Positions 3,366 to 42,019 of a stretch of DNA of 64,000 nt are shown here, in pieces. A program made the translations under genes and the position numbers. The stretch comes from an uncultured Bacillota bacterium. Lineage in GTDB: Bacteria; Bacillota; Limnochordia; Limnochordales; ZCTH02-B6. Where the stretch lies: assembly GCA_937975235.1 (NCBI GenBank), contig CALJUZ010000106.1, positions 695-64,694 on the forward strand. The letters run 5' to 3'. The first letter of the stretch is position 1, and each line of letters begins with the position of its first letter. Below the pieces are notes generated by a model, which saw only the letters and a program-made list of their open reading frames with translations, had not been told where the DNA came from and ran no database searches.

Positions 3366-3863
3366 TTGAGAATACTCGGCGTCGACCCGGGGCTCGCGCT
3401 GACGGGCTTCGGCGTCATCGAAGGCTCCGCCCGTCCGACGGCCCTTCGCTTCGGCGAGGTGCGCACGTCGCCGCACACGCCCGAAGCGGAGCGGCTTCAC
3501 CGCATCCACGAAGAGATCAGCGCCATTATCCGCGCCTTTCGGCCCGACGTGGTGGCCGTCGAGCAGCTGTTTTTCAACAAGAACGCCCGGAGCGCCATGG
3601 CCGTGGGCCAGGCGCGCGGCGTCGTGCTGCTGGCCGCGGCCGAAGCGGGGCTGGAAATTCACGAGTTCACGCCGCTGGAAGTCAAGCTCGCGGTGACGGG
3701 GCAGGGCCGCGCGGCCAAAGAGCAGGTCGGCTACATGGTGAAGATGCTCCTGGGCCTGAAGGCCGTGCCGCAGCCCGACGACGTGGCCGACGCGCTGGCG
3801 GTGGCGCTGACGTGCGCGCACACCATGGCCACCCGGCGGCGCTGGGGGGACGCGTTCAAGTGA
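3366..3863 (+). CDS. ruvC: Holliday junction resolvase RuvC
   Basis: RILGVDPG, AVEQLFF, DDVADALAVA motifs. Confidence 0.97.
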   Translation: MRILGVDPGLALTGFGVIEGSARPTALRFGEVRTSPHTPEAERLHRIHEEISAIIRAFRPDVVAVEQLFFNKNARSAMAVGQARGVVLLAAAEAGLEIHEFTPLEVKLAVTGQGRAAKEQVGYMVKMLLGLKAVPQPDDVADALAVALTCAHTMATRRRWGDAFK

Positions 3864-4465
3864 TCGCGATGCTGAGGGGCCGGGTGCTGCGCCGGGGGCC
3901 GGACTGGGTCGTCGTCGACGTGGGCGGTGTGGGTTACCGGGTGGCGGTGCCCGCGTCCACGGCCGCGGCGCTGCCGGGCCCGGGTGAAGAGGTGACGCTG
4001 CACACCCACACCCACGTGCGCGAGGACACGCTGGCCTTGTATGGGTTCGCGTCGGAAGACGAGCTGCGCCTGTTCGAGGACTTGATGACCGTGTCCGGCA
4101 TGGGGCCCAGGCTCTCGCTGACCGCGCTGTCCACCCTGCGGCCCGCGGAATTCCGGCGGGCCATCGCCGAGGAGGACGTCGCGTCCTTGACCCGCATTTC
4201 GGGCGTGGGCCGCAAAACCGCGCAGCGCATGATTTTGGAGCTCAAAGGCAAGCTGACGCCGGGTCCGGAAGGCGACGCCGGACCGCAGGCCGCGGCGGCT
4301 TTCGATGCACCCGAGTCCGACGCGGTGGCGGCGCTGGTGGCATTGGGCTATGCCGAGGCCGACGCGGCCCGGGCGGTGCGGGCCGCCCGCGCCGCGAAAG
4401 GGGAAGCCGACACGGCCCGGCTGGTGCGGCTGGCCCTGCGGGAGCTGGCGCCTTTTGACGCGTAG
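3860..4465 (+). CDS. ruvA: Holliday junction branch migration protein RuvA
   Basis: GTG overlaps ruvC stop; MIAMLRG...DVGGVGY...[11 protein letters not shown]...[15 protein letters not shown]. Confidence 0.96.
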
Positions 4466-4503
4466 CGCCGGCAGGCCGCGGCGCGGCGAGGGAGGACAGT
4501 GCG

Positions 4504-5589
4504 GTGAACAGAGACGAGGAGCGCATCGTCACGGGCCGGCTGCGGCCGGAGGACGCGGAGATTGAGGCCGGCCTGCGCCCGCGACGGCTGGCCTCGTACA
4601 TCGGGCAGGACCAGATCAAAGAAAGCTTGTCGGTGTTTATCGAGGCGGCCCGCTCCCGCGCCGAGGCGCTGGACCACGTGCTCCTGAGCGGTCCGCCGGG
4701 GCTGGGCAAGACGACGCTGGCGGGCGTCATCGCCAACGAGCTGGGCGTCAACATGCGCACCACCTCGGGCCCGGCCATCGAGCGCCAGGGCGACCTGGTG
4801 GCCATCTTGACCAACCTGGAGCCCCGGGACGTGCTGTTCATCGACGAAATCCACCGCCTGAACCGCACGGTGGAGGAAGTGCTCTATCCGGCCATGGAAG
4901 ACTTCGCGGTGGACATCGTCATCGGCAAGGGGCCCAGTGCGCGGTCCTTGCGGCTGGATCTGCCGCCCTTCACGCTCATCGGGGCCACCACCCGGGCGGG
5001 CATGCTGACCTCGCCCCTGCGGGACCGCTTCGGCGTCTTGTTCCGGCTGGAGTACTACACCGAGCGGGACTTGATGCAAATCGTGACGCGGGCGGCTCAG
5101 GTGCTGGACGTAGACGTCACCGAGGAGGGGGCGCGAGAGATCGCCCGGCGGGCCCGGGGAACGCCCCGCATCGCCAACCGGCTGCTGAAGCGGGTGCGGG
5201 ACTTCGCCCAGGTGCGGGCCGACGGGCGGGTCACCGGCCCGGTGGCGCGCGAGGCCCTGGCCATGCTGGACGTGGACGAGCTGGGGCTGGACCGCGTCGA
5301 CCGGGCGCTGCTGCAGACCATCATCGACAAGTTCGGCGGCGGCCCGGTGGGCGTGGAGACGCTGGCCGCGGCGGCCGGCGAAGAGGTCGAAACCATCGAA
5401 GACGTCTACGAGCCGTACCTCATGCAAATCGGCTATCTGGAGCGGACGCCCCGGGGCCGGCGGGCCACGGCCCTGGCGTACCGGCATTTGAATCGGCCGC
5501 TGCCAAGGCGCGGCCAGGAGGAGGACGACCGGGCGCCGGCCCAAGCCCCGCCGGGCGTCGATCAGTCTACGTTGTTCGAGGAGGCGTGA
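4504..5589 (+). CDS. ruvB: Holliday junction helicase RuvB
   Basis: [36 protein letters not shown]. Confidence 0.98.
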
Positions 5590-5592
5590 GCG

Positions 5593-5808
5593 GTGCCGTT
5601 TTCGGGCGTCGGGCGAAGCCTCGTGGTGGCGGGCGTCGTGCTGCTGGTGATCGGCGTGCTGATTCTGCTGCTGGAGCGCGTCGGCATCCCGCGGCTGCCG
5701 GGCGACATCGTCATCCGCCGGGGCAACTGGACGATTTACATCCCCATCGCCACGTCCATCTTGCTCAGCCTCATCCTCACGCTGCTGTTCGCACTGTTCC
5801 GGCGCTGA
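5593..5808 (+). CDS. DUF2905 small membrane protein
   Basis: 'RLPGDIVIRRGNWTIYIPIATSILLSLILTLL', typically downstream of ruvB. Confidence 0.85.
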   Translation: MPFSGVGRSLVVAGVVLLVIGVLILLLERVGIPRLPGDIVIRRGNWTIYIPIATSILLSLILTLLFALFRR

Positions 5809-5839
5809 CGGCGGCGCCGCCCGAAGGAGACCCGGTTCG

Positions 5840-6591
5840 ATGGCTCTTTACAAGGCCGAGGCGGTGGTGCTGCGCTCCCGCAGCCTGGGCGAGGCGGACA
5901 AAATCGTCACGCTGTTCACGTATGAGCGGGGAAAAGTGGAGGCGGTGGCCCGGGGCGTGCGCCGTCCGCGCAGCCGGCTTCTGGGTGTGACGCAGCTGTT
6001 TACCCACGGCCGCTTCCTGCTGTACGAGCGCAAGTCGCTGGACACCATCAGCCAGGGCGAAATCGTGCGGTCTTTTTTGCCCCTGCGGGAGGACTTGCTG
6101 CGCATGGCCCATGCGGCCTACGTGGCGGAGCTCCTGGACCGCACGACGGAGCTGAACGATGGACATCCCCGCCTGTTTGCGCTATTATTGATGGTTATGG
6201 AGATGCTGGCCACGGGCCCGCGGCTGGCATTGACGACGCGGTACTTCGAGGTGCAGCTTATGCAGGAACTGGGCTTTCGGCCGCACCTGGACGACTGCGT
6301 GCGCTGCGGGGCGCAGGACGCGTCGTGGTTCAGCGTCGAGGCCGGAGGGCTCGTGTGCGGGCGCTGCCGCGGCGCGGACGCGACCAAACTGGACCACGAG
6401 TCATTGGAAGTGATGCGCTACATGGCCCGGGCCGAGCCGGCGCGGCTGGGCGTTCTGCGGCCGTCCCGGCGGGCTTTGCAAACGCTGGAGGACGTGCTGC
6501 CCAAATACTGCGCGGCCCGCATCGGCCGCTGGCTGCATTCCATGGATTTCCTGCTGTCTTTGGGCGCGGCGGAAACGCAGGGGGTTGAGCG

Positions 6592-34726: not shown

Positions 34727-36025
34727 ATGCAGGGGATGTGGATTCGGGGCGGGCGGCCGCTCCGGGGCGTGTGGCGGGTTTCCGGGGCGAAGAACGCGGC
34801 GCTGAAAATGATGGCCGCGGCGCTGATGGCCACGGAAAAGTGCGTCATCACCGACGTGCCCGCCATCAACGACGTGCGGACGATGATGGGCGTCATGCGG
34901 CATTTGGGTGCGGACGTGCAGCTGCATCCCAACGGCCGCCTGGACATCGTCCCGCCCGCCGTGGACGCCTGGGAGGCGCCGGAGCATCTGGTGCGGCAAA
35001 TGCGGGCGTCGGTCCTGGTCATGGGCCCGGTGCTGGCCAAGACCGGCCGCGTGCGCATCGCGCTGCCCGGCGGCTGCGCCATCGGCCCGCGGCCCATTGA
35101 CCTGCACCTGCGGGGCCTGCGTCTGATGGGCGCCCGCATCGTCGAGGAGCGAGGCTTCGTGGAGGCCCACGCGGCGCGGCTGCGGGGCGCGGAGATTCAG
35201 CTGGACTTTCCCAGCGTCGGGGCCACTGAAAACCTGATGATGGCCGCCACGCTGGCCACAGGCACCACCGTCATCCGCAACGCCGCCCGGGAGCCCGAAA
35301 TCATCGACCTGCAGACGTTTTTGAACAGTATGGGCGCGAAAGTGGTGGGCGCCGGGACGGACACCATCCGCGTCGTCGGCGTGGAGGGGCTGCGGGGGGC
35401 GCGGCACGCGGTCATGCCCGACCGCATCGAGGCCGGCACGGCCATGGTGGCCGCGGCCGTCACCGGCGGGGACATTGTGGTGCAAAACGTCATTCCCGAG
35501 CATCTGGAAGCGGTGACGGCCAAGCTGCGGGAGGCGGGCGTGGAGGTGGCGCCGGCCGGGCCCGGCGGGCTGCGGGTGCGGGGATCGGGCCGGCCGCGGT
35601 CCTTTTACGTGCGCACGCAGCCCCACCCGGGCTTTCCGACCGACATGCAGCCGCAGTTCATGGCGCTCGCGTCGGTGGCCGAAGGTTCCAGCATCATCAA
35701 GGAAACGGTGTACACCAGCCGCATGAAGCACGCGGACGAACTGCGGCGCATGGGCGCCGACATCGTGGTGGACGGGTCCGTCGCGGTGGTGCGGGGCGTG
35801 GAGCGGCTGACGGGCGCGGTGGTGGAGGCGCCCGACTTGCGGGCCGGCGCCGCGCTGGTGCTGGCGGGCCTGGCCGCCGACGGCGAAACCGTCGTCGAAG
35901 GGCTGGAGCACATCGACCGGGGCTACGAGCTCTTCGAGGAGAAGCTGCAGGCCGTCGGAGCGGAAGTGCGCCGCATGGCCGAGGACACGCCGGTGGCGGG
36001 CGGGCGCCCGCTGGTCAGCGTCTGA
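34727..36025 (+). CDS. murA: MurA enolpyruvyl transferase
   Basis: [17 protein letters not shown] (catalytic Cys present), [19 protein letters not shown]. Confidence 0.96.
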
Positions 36026-36708
36026 TGAACGCCCGCGCCCACGCACCCCGGTCGGCGGAAGAGCCCCGTGTCATCCTGGCGCTGCTGGGCCTGCTGGCGG
36101 CGGCGGGCTTGTACGCGTTTTTGCAGTCGCCGTTTTTCGCGCTGGCCGACGTCCGGGTCGAAGGCTGGCGCACGGTGCCGCCCGAAGAGGTGGTGGCGCT
36201 GAGCGGCGTCCGCTACGGGGACAACCTCCTGCGGGTGGACATGCCCAAGGCCGCCGCGGCGGTGGAGCGCCATCCCCGCATCGAGCGGGCCGCGGTGCGG
36301 CGCAGCCTGCCGGGCACCCTGGTCATCGGCGTGGTGGAGTACGAGCCGTTGCTGCTGGCGGTGTCCGACGAGGACGCGGCCGCGCTGGCCTACGACGGCA
36401 CGCGCATTCCGGTCACGGAGGAGGAAGCCGCGCGCCTTCCGGTGTTTTACGGCGAGCCCGATGCGGTGCCGCCGGAGCTCTTGCGCGTCGCCGGGCTGCT
36501 GCCGCCGGACATTCATCGGCGCGTCCTGGTGATGGAGGCCGAGGGCGGCCTGGTGCTGCGAACCCGCACGGGGGAGACGGTGCTGCTGGGCGACGGGGAG
36601 AACCTGTCCCGCAAGCTGGGCATCGCCGTGGACCTGCTGCGCCAGGACCGCTATGCCGTCATCGACGTCCGTTTTCCCGCCTCTCCCGCCGTGCGCCCGG
36701 CGCAATAA
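36025..36708 (+). CDS. ftsQ: FtsQ/DivIB
   Basis: Single TM, POTRA-like region, 'HPRIERAAVRRSLPGTLVIGVVE', C-terminal 'IDVRF'. Confidence 0.85.
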   Translation: MNARAHAPRSAEEPRVILALLGLLAAAGLYAFLQSPFFALADVRVEGWRTVPPEEVVALSGVRYGDNLLRVDMPKAAAAVERHPRIERAAVRRSLPGTLVIGVVEYEPLLLAVSDEDAAALAYDGTRIPVTEEEAARLPVFYGEPDAVPPELLRVAGLLPPDIHRRVLVMEAEGGLVLRTRTGETVLLGDGENLSRKLGIAVDLLRQDRYAVIDVRFPASPAVRPAQ

Positions 36709-36734
36709 AAACCGCCGGCCGCGCGCCGAGACTG

Positions 36735-36761
36735 CAAGGGATCTCCCTTGATCTGTGGAAT
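36735..36761 (+). promoter_or_regulatory. sigmaH-like promoter of ftsZ
   Basis: AAGGGAT...GTGGAAT (AGGG-N17-GAAT). Confidence 0.55.
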
Positions 36762-36829
36762 AAAGCAGGAACCGGAAGTCGGCGTCGCGTTCGTCGCACG
36801 GTACCGCCCTGCTTAGGAGGCTTGAGTCC

Positions 36830-37882
36830 ATGTTCGAGTTTGACGAAGTGCAAAGCCAGTTCGCCCGCATCAAGGTGGTCGGGGTAGGCGGCGGTGGTCA
36901 GAACGCGATCAATCGCATGATCGACGCCGGCCTGCAAGGGGTGGAGTTTGCGGCCCTGAACACGGACGCGCAGGCGCTCATGATGTCCAACGCGTCGGTG
37001 AAGCTGCGCATCGGCGAAAAGCTGACCCGCGGGCTGGGCGCCGGGTCCAATCCCGAGATCGGCCAGAAGGCCGCCGAAGAGAGCCGCGAAGAGATCCGGG
37101 CCTTGCTGGAAGGCGCGGACATGGTGTTCGTCACCGCGGGCATGGGCGGCGGCACGGGCACCGGCGGCGCGCCCATCGTCGCGGAGGTGGCCCGGGAAGT
37201 CAACGCGCTGACCGTCGGCGTCGTGACCAAGCCCTTCACTTTCGAGGGCCGCCGTCGCCAGCAGCAGGCCGAACAGGGCATCGAACGCCTGCGGGAGAAA
37301 GTGGACACGCTCATCGTCATTCCCAACGACCGGCTGCTGCAGGTGGCGGAAAAGCGGACGTCCATTCTGGACGCGTTCAAGCTGGCCGACGACGTGCTGC
37401 GCCAGGGCGTGCAAGGCATCTCGGACCTGATCACGGTTCCCGGCCTCATCAACCTCGACTTCGCCGACGTGCGCACCATCATGGACAACGCGGGCTCGGC
37501 GCTGATGGGCATCGGTGTCGCCTCGGGCGAGGACCGGGCGGTGAAAGCCGCCAAAGCCGCCGTGTCCAGCCCCTTGCTGGAGGCGTCCATCGAGGGCGCC
37601 AGGGGCATTTTGCTCAACATCACCGGCAGCTCCAACCTCGGGCTGTTCGAGGTCAACGACGCGGCCGAGATCATCGCCGAGGCGGCCGACCCCGAAGCCA
37701 ACATCATTTTCGGCGCCGTCATCGACGAAACGCTGCGGGACGAAGTGCGGGTCACGGTCATCGCCACGGGCTTCGACGGCGCGGGCAGCCGGCGCCGCAC
37801 GGGGCTGCGGGAGCTGGAGATTCCGACCTTCAACAACGACGATCTGGATATTCCGGCCTTTCTGCGCCGCCGCTCGTCGTGA
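36830..37882 (+). CDS. ftsZ: Cell division protein FtsZ
   Basis: [34 protein letters not shown]. Confidence 0.99.
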
Positions 37883-37901
37883 CGCGGCGGCGCACGGCCC
37901 T

Positions 37902-38639
37902 TTAGGCGCCTTCCATCCGCTGCATCTCGACCCGCAGCTTTTGCAGAATGCGCTTCTCCAGCCGGGAAATGTACGACTGAGAAATGCCCAGCAGGTCCGC
38001 CACTTCCTTCTGCGTCCTGGCGCGCCCGCCGTTGTGCAGGCCGAAGCGCAGCCTCACGATGCGGCGTTCCCTTTGCGTCAGTCGATCCAGCGCCATGCCC
38101 AGCAGGTCTTTGTCCACTTCCTCCTCCAGCCGCCGCAGGACGTCGCTCTCGACGCCGATGACGTCGGAGAGCAGCAGCTCGTTGCCGTCCCAGTCCGTGT
38201 TCAGCGGCTCGTCGAAGGACACCTCCGCCCGCGTTTTCGCGTTGCGCCGCAGGAACATCAGGATCTCGTTTTCGATGCAGCGCGAGGCGTACGTGGCCAG
38301 CTTGATATTCTTTCCCGGATCGAACGTATTAACCGCCTTGATGAGTCCGATGGTGCCGATGGAAACCAGATCCTCCACCGAAATGCCCGTGTTCTCGAAC
38401 TTGCGGGCGATGTAGACGACCAGCCGCAGGTTGCGCTCGATGAGCGGCGTGCGGGCCGAGCCGTCGCCGCGGCGCAGCCGGTCCATCAGCGCCGCTTCCT
38501 CCTCGCCGGTCAGCGGCGGCGGGAGCACCTCGGTGCTGCCGATGTACAGCACCGCCGGCGGCGGCATGATCCGGCGGGCCAGGCCCAGGGCCCACCAGCG
38601 CAGCAGCCAGCGTCGCTTAATAGTGCGAAGGGGCGTCAC
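37902..38639 (-). CDS. sigE: Pro-sigmaE
   Basis: Pro-sequence then [50 protein letters not shown]. Confidence 0.95.
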
Positions 38640-39615
38640 CGGTTCGCGGCCTCCTTGAGAAGTATTGGGCCGCCGGCTCCTCCCGGGCGTCCCCGGCCAG
38701 GACAGTCCGCAGCAAGTCGGGATGGACGAGGGCCCGGTACGAGCCGTCGGGATCCAACGGCCCTTTGCAGACGGCCAGGATGCAGTCGCCCGCGGGCGTC
38801 GGGCGGCCCTCCCAGACCAGCCGCACCGCGTCGGGGCGAAAGCCGATCAACAGCCCGTGCCGGCGCCCGATGGATGAAAACGGGATGACGCGAAAGCGGG
38901 CCGACCAGCGCTCCGAGGCCAGGAGCCGCTCCACCGCGCTCAAGTCGCCGCTCTCCATCCGTTCCACGGCGGGACGCACGTCGCCGGGCAGCAAGTCCGC
39001 CAGCGTTTCCTGTTCCACCACCACCACGGGCCGGCCCGTCAGCGGATCGCGCAGCCGGTTGCCCGTGTCCACCAATGCCATCATCCGGCGGCAGCGGCCG
39101 CCGAGCTCGATCTCCAGCGGCAGCTGGTACAGCTGCTGCCAAATGCGCCGCTGCAGCACGCCCCAGCCCAGCTCGGCCACGGCCAAAATCGCGCCGCCCG
39201 CCGCGAGGAAGCCCGCCACCGAATCGGGCGCGCCGCCGCTGCCGAACAGAAAGGAGGCGGCCGTGCCCGCGCCCGCGGCGACGAAGCCGATGCCGTAAAA
39301 GTGTGCCCCGATGGCCAGCAGCCGGCGGACGGGGCGGGCTCCGAAGGCGACGACTAGCATCGCGGCCGAAACGAGGAACACGACGGGCACCAGGCGCAGA
39401 TGGCCGTAGCCGGGCAAGACGCCCGCACCGGCCAGCGTGTGCGCCACGAAATAGCCCGCGCCCAGCAGCGCCGCGGCCGCCAGACGGCCCGCTGACGCGG
39501 GCGCGCGGGCCACTTCCGCGGTGGCCCAGAGCAGCATGTAGTCAAAGATCAGCGCGGCGACGGCCTGGAGCATCAGCGCATCCATCCAGATGACGGTTCC
39601 GGCGCCGCCGCCCAT
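38617..39615 (-). CDS. spoIIGA: Pro-sigmaE processing aspartic protease SpoIIGA
   Basis: Multi-TM N-terminus, '[18 protein letters not shown]', 'RVIPFSSIG...LLIGFRPD'; precedes sigE on the same strand. Confidence 0.93.
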
Positions 39616-39718
39616 GGGCATCGCCTCCTTTCACGCGCGGCTCGGACGGTTCGTCCGTGGCACAATCTTATTACCCCGTCCGGGGAGCGATTCCTGCGTC
39701 CGTTGTACACAGACTTCG

Positions 39719-39749
39719 GAATAGTCTGGACAAACCTGCGGCAATACTG
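39719..39749 (+). promoter_or_regulatory. sigmaF/sigmaG-type promoter of sigG
   Basis: GAATA-N16-GGCAATACTG. Confidence 0.65.
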
Positions 39750-39787
39750 ATGACAGCAGGCTGAAGCGACGAGGGGGCCCCGGGCGG

Positions 39788-40561
39788 ATGAACAAGGTGG
39801 AAATTTGCGGCGTCAACACGTCCAAGCTGCCGGTGCTCAGCAACCCGTACATGCGGGAGCTGCTGAAACGCGTGCGGCAAGGCGACAAGGACGCGCGCGC
39901 CGAGCTCATCCAAGGCAATCTGCGCCTGGTTCTCAGCGTCATTCAGCGGTTCAACAACCGCGGCGAAAACGTGGACGACCTGTTTCAGGTGGGCTGCATC
40001 GGCTTGATGAAAGCCATCGACAACTTTGACCTCAGCCAGAACGTAAAGTTTTCCACGTACGCCGTGCCCATGATCATCGGGGAAATCCGCCGCTACCTGC
40101 GGGACAACAACCCGATTCGGGTCAGCCGCAGCCTGCGCGACATCGCGTACAAGGCGCTGCAAGTGCGGGACAGCCTGGTCAGCCGCTACAACAGGGAGCC
40201 GACGCTGACACAGATCGCCGAGGAGATGGGGCTGCCGAGAGAGGAAGTCGTGTACGCGCTGGACGCGATTCAGGAGCCCATTTCGCTCTTCGAGCCCATC
40301 TACCACGACGGCGGCGACCCCATTTTCGTCATGGACCAAATCAGCGACGAGCGGTCCGAGGACTCCCGGTGGATCGACGGCATTTCCATCCGGGAAGCCA
40401 TGTCCCGCCTGGGCGAGCGGGAACGGCTCATCCTGACCAAGCGGTTTTTCCACGGCCGCACGCAGATGGAGGTGGCCGACGAGATCGGCATTTCCCAGGC
40501 GCAAGTGTCCAGGCTGGAGAAAGCGGCGCTGAAACACCTGCGGCGCTACATGTCCGGCTGA
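39788..40561 (+). CDS. sigG: Forespore sigma factor SigG
   Basis: MNKVEICGVNTSKLPVL, DDLFQVGCIGLMKAIDNFD, RRYLRDNNPIRVSRS. Confidence 0.97.
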   Translation: MNKVEICGVNTSKLPVLSNPYMRELLKRVRQGDKDARAELIQGNLRLVLSVIQRFNNRGENVDDLFQVGCIGLMKAIDNFDLSQNVKFSTYAVPMIIGEIRRYLRDNNPIRVSRSLRDIAYKALQVRDSLVSRYNREPTLTQIAEEMGLPREEVVYALDAIQEPISLFEPIYHDGGDPIFVMDQISDERSEDSRWIDGISIREAMSRLGERERLILTKRFFHGRTQMEVADEIGISQAQVSRLEKAALKHLRRYMSG

Positions 40562-40633
40562 CCCGCGCCGTACGCCGCCCGCAGCGTTCCGGCCCGGCGG
40601 CGGACACTGCACGGGAGAGGGGGTAGACCAACG

Positions 40634-41308
40634 GTGTCACAGGCGACGCGTGATCACTTCCGCGTGCCGGCCGCGGGCCGGATTTTCGCGGCTCTCATCA
40701 TTGCTCTAACGGTTCTCGCCGCGCTGGCGGCGTGGCGGGTCCTCGGGCCGGCCGCGACCGAGGCGTACGACGCGGCGCTGCCGGTGATGCGGCTGCACGT
40801 GGTGCCCCACGACAACACGCCCGAGTCGCAGACGCTGAAGCTGCACGTCCGCGACCGGGTTCTGCAGGCGGTCTACGAGCTGACCCGCGGCCTGGACGCG
40901 GAGGAGGCGGCGGCGCGCCTCGCCGCGGAAGCCGAGACTCTGCGGGCGGCCGCCGAACACGAGGTGCGGCGGCGGGGCGCCGCGCATCCGGTGCGCATCG
41001 TGCCGGAAGCCGGCGCCGACGGCCGGCCGGCGGCGCTGCGGGTCGTCATCGGCGCGGGAGCGGGGAACAACTGGTTCTGCGTGCTGGTGCCGCCGCTTTG
41101 CTTCTCGGACCTGGACGCGGTGGAAAAGCGGCCCGTGGACCCGGAGCGGCCCGCGGGCGTGCGGTTCGCGTGGCGCTGGCTGGACGGCTGGCTGAGCCGG
41201 CTGTCACGGTCCGGGGAAGGCGTCGGGCAGGTGCACGAGGATGACGTCGACGCCGATCTTGCGCACGCGGCCCCACGGGACGGCCACGTCCGGGCGGCGC
41301 CCGAATAA
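40634..41308 (+). CDS. spoIIR: Stage II sporulation protein R (divergent)
   Basis: 'RLHVVPHDNTPESQTLKLHVRD' and 'ALRVVIGAGAGNNWFCVLVPPLCF' match the two SpoIIR blocks. Confidence 0.85.
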   Translation: MSQATRDHFRVPAAGRIFAALIIALTVLAALAAWRVLGPAATEAYDAALPVMRLHVVPHDNTPESQTLKLHVRDRVLQAVYELTRGLDAEEAAARLAAEAETLRAAAEHEVRRRGAAHPVRIVPEAGADGRPAALRVVIGAGAGNNWFCVLVPPLCFSDLDAVEKRPVDPERPAGVRFAWRWLDGWLSRLSRSGEGVGQVHEDDVDADLAHAAPRDGHVRAAPE

Positions 41309-41464
41309 GGAGAACAGCCGCCGGCCGCCGTCGCCCGGCAGCAGCAGCGCGTGGATCGCGCCCGTGTCCGCGTCCACGTCCAAATCGTAGACGTAGCCCA
41401 GCTTGCGGCCGTCCACCAGGTTGACCACGTCCAGGAGCCGCAGCTCGGACGCCCGCACCAGCAC
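41204..41464 (-). CDS. ylmC: YlmC/YmxH PRC-barrel sporulation protein
   Basis: 'SELRLLDVVNLVDGRKLGYVYDLDVD..TGAIHALLLP...VPWGRVRKIGVDVILV'. Confidence 0.92.
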   Translation of the reverse strand: MLVRASELRLLDVVNLVDGRKLGYVYDLDVDADTGAIHALLLPGDGGRRLFSLFGRRPDVAVPWGRVRKIGVDVILVHLPDAFPGP

Positions 41465-41563
41465 CGCGCTCCCTCCCCGGAACTACCGTATTCACGCCTG
41501 CCGCCGCCGGTCCCACGCTTCTTCCCGCATACTCATGTATAATGTCGGCAGGAGGGATCGGTT

Positions 41564-42019
41564 ATGCGGTGTCCGTTCTGCCGGCACGACGAAACGAAAG
41601 TCCTCGACTCGCGCGCGACCGAAGAAGGCGCGTCCATCCGGCGCCGGCGCCTATGCGAAAACTGCGGCCGACGCTTTACGACCTACGAGCGCTGGGAGGA
41701 AACGCCGCTGTTGGTCGTGAAGAAGGACGGGCGGCGCGAGCCTTTCCAGCGGCAAAAGATCCTGGCCGGCCTGGTCACCGCGTGCGAAAAGCGGCCCGTC
41801 CCTCTGCGCGTCCTGGAAGAAATCGTGGACGACATCGAGCGCACCCTCCGCCAGGAAGGCGAATCGGAAGTCACCAGCCGTGCCATCGGCGAAGCCGTCA
41901 TGGAGCGCCTCCGCGAGGTGGACGAAGTCGCGTACGTGCGGTTCGCCTCGGTGTACCGGGAATTTCGCGACATCACCGCCCTGCTCGGCGAAGTGGAGAA
42001 GCTGGTCAAAAGGGAGTGA
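41564..42019 (+). CDS. nrdR: Transcriptional repressor NrdR
   Basis: MRCPFC..TKVLDSR..IRRRRLC..C..RFTTYE; [11 protein letters not shown]. Confidence 0.98.

Follow-up and report, generated by a model that had tools for sequence, protein, structure and literature searches.

In Bacillus subtilis the genes spoIIGA, sigE and sigG lie downstream of ftsA and ftsZ; the four genes from ftsZ to sigG are neighbours, and spoIIGA immediately precedes sigE. The promoter of the spoIIG operon (spoIIGA-sigE) has in this species a TTGACA-like hexamer 21–22 nucleotides (nt) upstream of TATAAT, the spacer being 22 bp. Transcription from spoIIG runs on into sigG, but a large hairpin neutralises this read-through (PMC5942855). 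Tri-cistronic transcripts have been seen in B. subtilis and in Clostridium acetobutylicum; in the latter species and in C. difficile the locus is clustered and co-transcribed, with a sigmaA promoter (PMC3789822). Here we describe the same locus in an uncultured bacterium of the class Limnochordia (Bacillota). The window we have analysed is a stretch of 64,000 nt, positions 695 to 64,694 of contig CALJUZ010000106.1. In it spoIIGA and sigE are inverted: they converge with ftsZ and diverge from sigG.

The identity and the strand of the four genes are confirmed by the list of open reading frames and by profile searches. ftsZ is found on the plus strand at 36830–37882 (TIGR00065, 450 bits). It is followed on the minus strand by sigE (37902–38639; TIGR02835, 382 bits, cut-off 348.6), which codes for pro-sigma-E, and by spoIIGA (38617–39621; PF03419, 217 bits), which codes for the aspartic protease that processes it. 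sigG is again on the plus strand (39788–40561; TIGR02850, 496 bits). A sequence-only reading of the window had reported this arrangement, and both the strands and the profiles agree with it; the series ftsZ > spoIIGA > sigE > sigG on a single strand, in which read-through is possible, is not present. The genes of the sigma-E module are intact. sigE has a GTG start codon with the Shine-Dalgarno sequence AAGGAGG and lies directly downstream of spoIIGA, its start overlapping the 3' end of that gene by 23 nt. The N-terminal pro-sequence of SigE is kept: the TIGR02835 match begins at residue 14, and region 2 is preceded by about 25 residues. SpoIIGA scores 167 bits with the NCBIfam equivalog model, under its cut-off of 209.55; its translation contains VDTGN, which is the DTG motif of an aspartic protease, and its gene is present in one copy in the genome (2.33 Mb in 211 contigs). 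spoIIR is also found in this genome.

The locus shares with B. subtilis the adjacency of the four genes, the pro-sequence of pro-sigma-E, the DTG motif of SpoIIGA, a sigG promoter of its own of sigmaF/G type and the proximity of ylmC and nrdR. It differs by the inverted cassette, which makes the read-through from spoIIG into sigG (PMC5942855) impossible, and by a spoIIG promoter with neither the long-spacer TTGACA-like/TATAAT pair nor Spo0A-binding (0A) boxes. Furthermore spoIIR is right behind sigG, while in B. subtilis it is near the origin, and ftsA does not stand between ftsQ and ftsZ. The clostridial loci of C. difficile and C. acetobutylicum have the same gene content; they also resemble our locus in a sigG promoter nearer to the sigmaF type and in a sporulation gene set of clostridial form. 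However they are co-directional, they give tri-cistronic, bi-cistronic and sigG-only transcripts, and they have a mapped, Spo0A-bound sigmaA promoter GTGACA/TATAAT upstream of spoIIGA, of a type which is absent here (PMC3789822).

The inversion is not a peculiarity of one genome. The loci of relatives were found with the window proteins and the strands of the neighbouring genes were read by tblastn. Forty relatives returned 30 loci, from 13 families, and all 30 have ftsZ convergent with sigE-spoIIGA and sigG divergent from them. Nine additional genomes from the taxonomic order of the window gave the same result (9/9). We then have a census of the whole class: 95 Limnochordia species genomes, 89 of them with sigE. 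The remaining 49 genomes which carry sigE are all inverted (49/49), so that in total the inverted order is found in every one of the 88 readable genomes out of the 89. They include complete genomes in a single contig (G009, G010 and G013), and the flip is shared by all families of the class which have sigE. The sequence-only reading had proposed a comparison of synteny in relatives; its outcome is that the inverted order is the norm of the class. That reading had also envisaged such a norm together with standard Spo0A/sigmaA control: the orientation is indeed the norm, but the promoter is not of the Spo0A/sigmaA type, as discussed below. One genome (G196, locus L264, contig C137) has an extra contig of 1.8 kb with the canonical spoIIGA > sigE > sigG. 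Its SpoIIGA is 33% identical, the level of outgroups, while the genome's own contig of 13 kb is inverted; the small contig duplicates a single-copy locus and is probably a contaminant of the bin.

Outside the class the situation is the opposite: all 70 outgroup Firmicute loci with a readable orientation are co-directional and none is inverted. These outgroups include Thermaerobacter-like genomes (72% G+C), Hydrogenispora, Desulfotomaculia, Syntrophaceticus, Clostridium, Oscillospiraceae, Tissierellia, Thermoactinomyces and Paenibacillus. In the Hydrogenispora group (L046–L048 and L052) we find the canonical ftsZ > spoIIGA > sigE, with no sigG within 4 kb downstream: in this group sigG has been relocated elsewhere. 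A quick maximum-likelihood tree of 106 rows was obtained from concatenated FtsZ, SigE, SigG and SpoIIGA. In it the 43 distinct inverted rows group in a single clade, with a support of 100 in the Shimodaira-Hasegawa-like approximate likelihood ratio test (SH-aLRT), and the arrangement needs one change only. Independently of the tree, the taxonomy of the collection places all inverted genomes in one class and all canonical ones outside it. The flip is fixed across Limnochordia and absent outside: it is an old marker of the class. None of the searchable papers was found to describe this order of genes in Limnochordia; a survey of sporulation genes which includes Limnochorda does not mention it.

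We explain these results, with good confidence, by an ordinary sigma-E module whose spoIIGA-sigE cassette was inverted once, together with its promoter, in the ancestor of the class. The module would be the usual one for sigma-E activation (the SpoIIGA protease, pro-sigma-E, the forespore signal SpoIIR and sigG), and the inverted state would have been retained since then. Some consequences follow from topology, as the sequence-only reading had already noted when it stated that co-directional read-through is lost on both sides. Transcription of spoIIGA-sigE cannot enter sigG because of its opposite orientation, and transcription of ftsZ and of the division and cell wall (dcw) cluster cannot supply sense sigE messenger RNA. 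Since read-through is topologically impossible, the forespore promoter of sigG has to provide all of its transcription. Orientation, and not a translation-blocking hairpin such as that of B. subtilis, would insulate the sigG unit from that of spoIIG.

The divergent spacer between spoIIGA and sigG has 166 nt. It contains two conserved back-to-back predicted promoters, with 20 nt between their -35 boxes. The one of sigG, on the plus strand at 39718–39749, has GGAATAG (39718–39724), 15 nt and GGCAATACTG (39740–39749). In 38 of 40 Limnochordia the pattern GnATR-N16-19-CA(A)TAnT is located 30–45 nt before the start of sigG, where 0.12 are expected from shuffled sequences; it is also present in 24 of 55 outgroups. 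Its sequence makes it a promoter of the forespore (sigmaF/G) type, in agreement with the earlier claim that the spacer keeps such a promoter.

The second predicted promoter is that of spoIIG, on the minus strand. It has a sigmaH-like -35 box GCAGGAAT at 39690–39697 and a -10-like box GGTAATAAGAT at 39665–39675, in which GGTAAT occupies 39675–39670; both boxes are conserved. In the class the motif on the spoIIGA strand is RRAGGAAT, about 16 nt and TA(A/G)TA(T/A), located about 45–60 nt upstream of the start. AGGA-N16-18-(G/C)TA is found in 58 of 83 distinct Limnochordia spacers (4.6 expected), the commonest -10 words being CTAATAT, GTAATAT, GTAGTAT and GTAATAA. In the whole genome (2.3 Mb) a box of this type has three matches; the other two are upstream of a helicase-like and of a gcvT-like gene and are not informative. 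A -10 of sigmaF type (GGTAATAAGA compared with GGnnAnAHTR) was tried and rejected: the spacing from the -35-like box is 3 nt too short and the sequence is not conserved in other families. A promoter of the same type, AGGAWWW-N14-GTA(G/A)(A/T)T, also written AGGA...GGTAGAT, precedes spoIIGA in the nearest outgroups, namely Hydrogenispora (L046–L048 and L050), L129, L143 and L146, although their order is the canonical ftsZ > spoIIGA > sigE. Because these relatives share it in canonical orientation, this type of promoter is older than the flip and not its product. The inversion thus carried the promoter along with the cassette, which resulted in two promoters placed back to back.

It is clear what kind of promoter this is not. 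A standard scan for sigma-70-type (sigmaA) promoters and terminators found no promoter of this type, and a sigmaA scan of the Limnochordia spacers gave no enrichment over shuffles. In the 166-nt spacer there is no 0A box even when one mismatch is allowed. With the same tolerance the Limnochordia spacers have 10 boxes, where 12.7 are expected, and none is perfect; the outgroups have 71, where 38.3 are expected, and six are perfect. The sequence-only reading had seen no perfect Spo0A box in the window, unlike Bacillus spoIIG, and this holds throughout the class. The regions upstream of spoIIGA in the outgroups are not sigmaH-like: they have TTGACA/TCGACA-like-N21/22-TATAAT (p ≤ 0.05 in 13 of 48, Fisher 4e-4), for instance TCGACA-N21-TATAAT in Thermaerobacter. 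In Limnochordia itself spoIIE has TCGACA-N21-TATAGT, sometimes with a perfect TTCGACA, and in this genome GTCGACG-N21-TATAGT. The long-spacer promoter is therefore recognised both in outgroup spoIIG and in spoIIE of the class, which serve as positive controls, but a Spo0A-activated sigmaA promoter (a TTGACA-like or 0A-like hexamer, 21–22 nt and a TATAAT-like hexamer, with TGTCGAA boxes) is not found at spoIIG of the class. Since spoIIE retains this long-spacer device, the class possesses it, although it is absent before spoIIGA. To judge by sequence conservation, the spoIIG promoter is real, and it does not belong to the Spo0A-box long-spacer sigmaA type.

The consensus of sigmaH promoters is RNAGGAWWW-N11-12-RNNGAATWW. 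A scan with RNAGGAWWW-N11-13-RNNGAATWW showed enrichment over shuffles, with p ≤ 0.05 in 12 of 40 spacers (Fisher 6e-9; the tests are phylogenetically non-independent). In the window GCAGGAATC fits the -35 block in 8 of its 9 positions (7 of the 8 specified ones), and 12 nt separate the two blocks, within the 11–13 nt of the sigmaH spacing. Both sigH and spo0A are present in this genome, where two promoters may be used as a yardstick: spoIIAA has GCAGGATTA-N11-AGCGAATAT and spo0A has CGAGGAATC-N11-GTAGAAAGA, both of sigmaH type. In both, G-A-A occupies positions +21 to +23 counted from the A of AGGA, as it does in spoIIAA of the relatives. The spoIIG site shares with such early sporulation promoters (the spoIIAA operon, spo0A Ps) the -35 box and the offset of 21–22 nt, but at this offset it has G-T-A, followed by TAATAA. 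The match of RRAGGAAT and of its spacing with spoIIAA and spo0A suggests that spoIIGA-sigE might be read by the sigmaH holoenzyme in the pre-divisional cell, a proposal for and against which we find about equal reason. The sigmaH-like site that the sequence-only reading had proposed on the minus strand is upheld in its -35 box and its spacing, and not in its -10 box.

Several points weigh against the explanation we prefer, some of them against the role of sigmaH in particular. The -10 is TAATAA here and TAATAT, preceded by G or C, in the class, not the RNNGAATWW of the consensus nor the cGAA(A/T) of the sigmaH-type promoters of the same class, and this difference is conserved. With a position weight matrix made from the spoIIAA sites of 15 relatives, 4.64 million genome positions were scanned: the first rank goes to the spo0A site and rank 18 to the spoIIAA site, but the site of spoIIG comes only at rank 424. 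About one quarter of the spacers, several of them from families of the window's own order, do not have the box as it is defined by the regular expression. The promoters and the 3' ends are predictions from sequence, and so is the possible antisense overlap of ftsZ and sigE which the sequence-only reading had proposed. The tree is based on a quick search with the four proteins of the locus itself, and its branching among the near outgroups is insecure. Finally, a relaxed blocking of the sigG ribosome-binding site was expected after the flip, but a crude test gave the opposite result. In an upstream-extended RNA the Shine-Dalgarno sequence of sigG has a predicted median unpaired probability of 0.21 in Limnochordia versus 0.385 in canonical outgroups, that is, occlusion is stronger in Limnochordia.

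The alternative which survives best is that spoIIG is read by sigmaA, with AGGAAT as the site of an activator which replaces the -35 region, either Spo0A~P on a non-consensus sequence or another factor. We consider it a serious possibility, although we lean away from it. TAATAT is a good -10 hexamer for sigmaA, and the words CTAATAT, GTAATAT, GTAGTAT and GTATAAT keep T1, A2, A5 and T6 of TATAAT, whereas in these genomes the sites of sigmaH type show cGAA at that place. The low rank of the spoIIG site in the matrix scan points in the same direction, as does the dependence of spoIIG on sigmaA and Spo0A in B. subtilis and C. difficile (PMC3789822; PMC3485338). On the other hand the agreement with spoIIAA and spo0A in the -35 box and in the 21–22 nt offset would be left as an unexplained coincidence. 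No TTGACA-like hexamer is found at 16–18 or at 20–23 nt, and 0A boxes are not enriched. A Spo0A site should also look like those of spoIIE in the class, whose 0A-box promoters are recognisable. Judging from these sequences, roughly half of our expectation lies with sigmaH, about a third with sigmaA and an activator, and the rest with something else. It is also an evenly balanced matter whether the odd but conserved TAATAT would make the spoIIG promoter weak or dependent on a co-activator.

According to another alternative, (GG)AGGAAT might be conserved not as a -35 box of spoIIG but because the strand of sigG then reads ATTCCTCC, an anti-Shine-Dalgarno-like sequence which would mask the sigG ribosome-binding site in stray transcripts from upstream. 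The stronger predicted occlusion of sigG does agree with it, and the occlusion is likely to be stronger because the complement of GGAGGAAT resembles the anti-Shine-Dalgarno sequence. Nevertheless we find masking improbable as the reason for conservation. In the canonical near outgroups the box is upstream of spoIIGA, far from sigG, and it has there its -10 partner at a fixed spacing. In the window itself the box ATTCCTGC is not complementary to GAGGGGG, the Shine-Dalgarno sequence of sigG, and on that side there is no known promoter whose transcripts would enter sigG.

The two remaining alternatives concern the inversion itself, and both a misassembly and a recent strain-level event are excluded because the inversion is found throughout the class, with the canonical order outside. 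A recent regulatory innovation of this organism or of its family is refuted by the census: local flips do occur here, since that of ylmC is specific to the family, but the spoIIGA-sigE flip is common to all the families of the class which carry sigE and can be traced to one branch, the one at the base of the class. An artefact of assembly or binning in a metagenome-assembled genome, which the sequence-only reading had considered and which a draft of 211 contigs might suggest, can practically be dismissed, as the window is inside a contig of 131 kb and 88 independently assembled species genomes agree in this order and in the genes on either side.

At the convergent end of the cassette, the stop codons of ftsZ and sigE are separated by 19 nt (37883–37901), just as the sequence-only reading had counted. 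This distance is typical of the class: in 41 Limnochordia loci the median is 24 nt and the extremes are -4 (overlapping stops) and 142 nt, and 16 of them have 20 nt or less. No U-tailed terminator is found at this junction by a consensus scan. The standard scan detected two terminator-like sites, neither of them at the ftsZ/sigE or the spoIIGA/sigG junction. The sequence-only reading had also seen no clear U-tailed terminator there, but a strong GC-rich hairpin is present. It is a predicted stem-loop of 11–13 pairs at 37863–37894, with the stop codon of ftsZ in its loop and without a U-tract, and it is the only candidate for a terminator or insulator at the convergent junction. Its stem is self-complementary and folds on both strands; on the ftsZ strand it is followed only by CCCUUUAGG. 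A junction window of 75 nt folds better than shuffled sequences (z = -2.4), and so do on average the junctions of the class (mean z = -2.0 in 41 loci). The high-GC relatives L034, L035, L016 and L137 have similar GC hairpins which span the stop, while the AT-richer members have textbook bidirectional terminators (A-tract, hairpin and T-tract). The convergent junction would be closed by the hairpin in the former and by the classic terminators in the latter.

Around the cassette the gene order has other features. Upstream of ftsZ there is a ftsQ/divIB-like gene (36025–36708, plus strand; PF08478 POTRA and PF03799), with ftsZ directly next to it and no ftsA in between. In the whole genome no ftsA scores above the NCBIfam cut-off; the best match has 72.7 bits versus 175.85. 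In the Limnochordia loci which are long enough to show ftsQ, the gap between ftsQ and ftsZ is too small for ftsA; in several outgroups it measures about 1.4 kb, so that ftsA would fit. On the other side spoIIR (40634–41308, plus strand) follows sigG after 72 nt. It scores 77.7 bits with PF09551 (cut-off 25) and 82 bits with TIGR02837, under the cut-off of the latter model, and SpoIIR has a conserved C-terminal tail which extends about 60 residues past the family model. The pair sigG-spoIIR is not specific to this clade. It is found in many canonical lineages (L041, L072, L069, L123, L125 and L126), among them Syntrophaceticus, Desulfothermobacter, Desulfotomaculum-like and Thermaerobacter-like genomes.

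Next comes ylmC/ymxH, on the minus strand at 41204–41464 (TIGR02888, 74 bits). It is flipped with respect to sigG, spoIIR and nrdR, and it overlaps the 3' end of spoIIR by about 105 nt. The gene is likewise flipped, with an overlap, in five other members of the window's family. In the other Limnochordia families and in the outgroups ylmC is co-directional, with the exception of the outgroup locus L127, where it is flipped. It is a second and younger inversion, of a single gene within the block. The conserved block ends at nrdR (41564–42019, plus strand; TIGR00244, 209 bits). As possible traces of inversion we looked for flanking inverted repeats and found only GC-rich chance matches; there are no Rfam matches with E ≤ 1 in 36600–41700.

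Elsewhere in the genome there are two Spo0A-like genes, at C8:2983–3765 and C64:34842–35591. One of them (281 bits) lies behind a rRNA-methyltransferase-like gene and has a strong predicted promoter of sigmaH type; the other (202 bits) has the classical position directly after spoIVB. SpoIIE (contig C97, about 3445–5964) has its apparent start about 90 codons upstream of the match with the family model. In the family of the window it gives two separate model matches, under the equivalog cut-off, as corresponds to a divergent SpoIIE.

A more far-reaching scenario may be drawn from these features, although we regard it as doubtful. In Limnochordia and their nearest relatives the synthesis of sigma-E would have moved from Spo0A~P and sigmaA to a promoter of sigmaH type or a hybrid; the later flip would then have made occupancy of this promoter and of that of sigG mutually exclusive, orientation taking the place of the RNA hairpin by which sigG is kept silent in the mother cell of B. 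subtilis. If this were true, the hybrid would combine a sigmaH-like -35 with a sigmaA-like -10, and the -35 boxes of the two promoters would be about 20 nt apart. The flip is accompanied by a spoIIG promoter which is not of the Spo0A-box type, while spoIIE of the class keeps such a promoter; the mother-cell programme may thus have been rewired at its top.

The locus brings neither a new protein nor a new mechanism; it is a modest variant, in gene order and promoter, of a well-known system. Nevertheless the spoIIGA-sigE-sigG block is among the most conserved gene orders of endospore formers, and a flip fixed in a class is a clean rare genomic change, which separates Limnochordia from their Hydrogenispora-like and Thermaerobacter-like neighbours. 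The class includes Limnochorda pilosa, a cultured species which forms spores. Read-through from spoIIG into sigG is dispensable for sporulation across the whole lineage.

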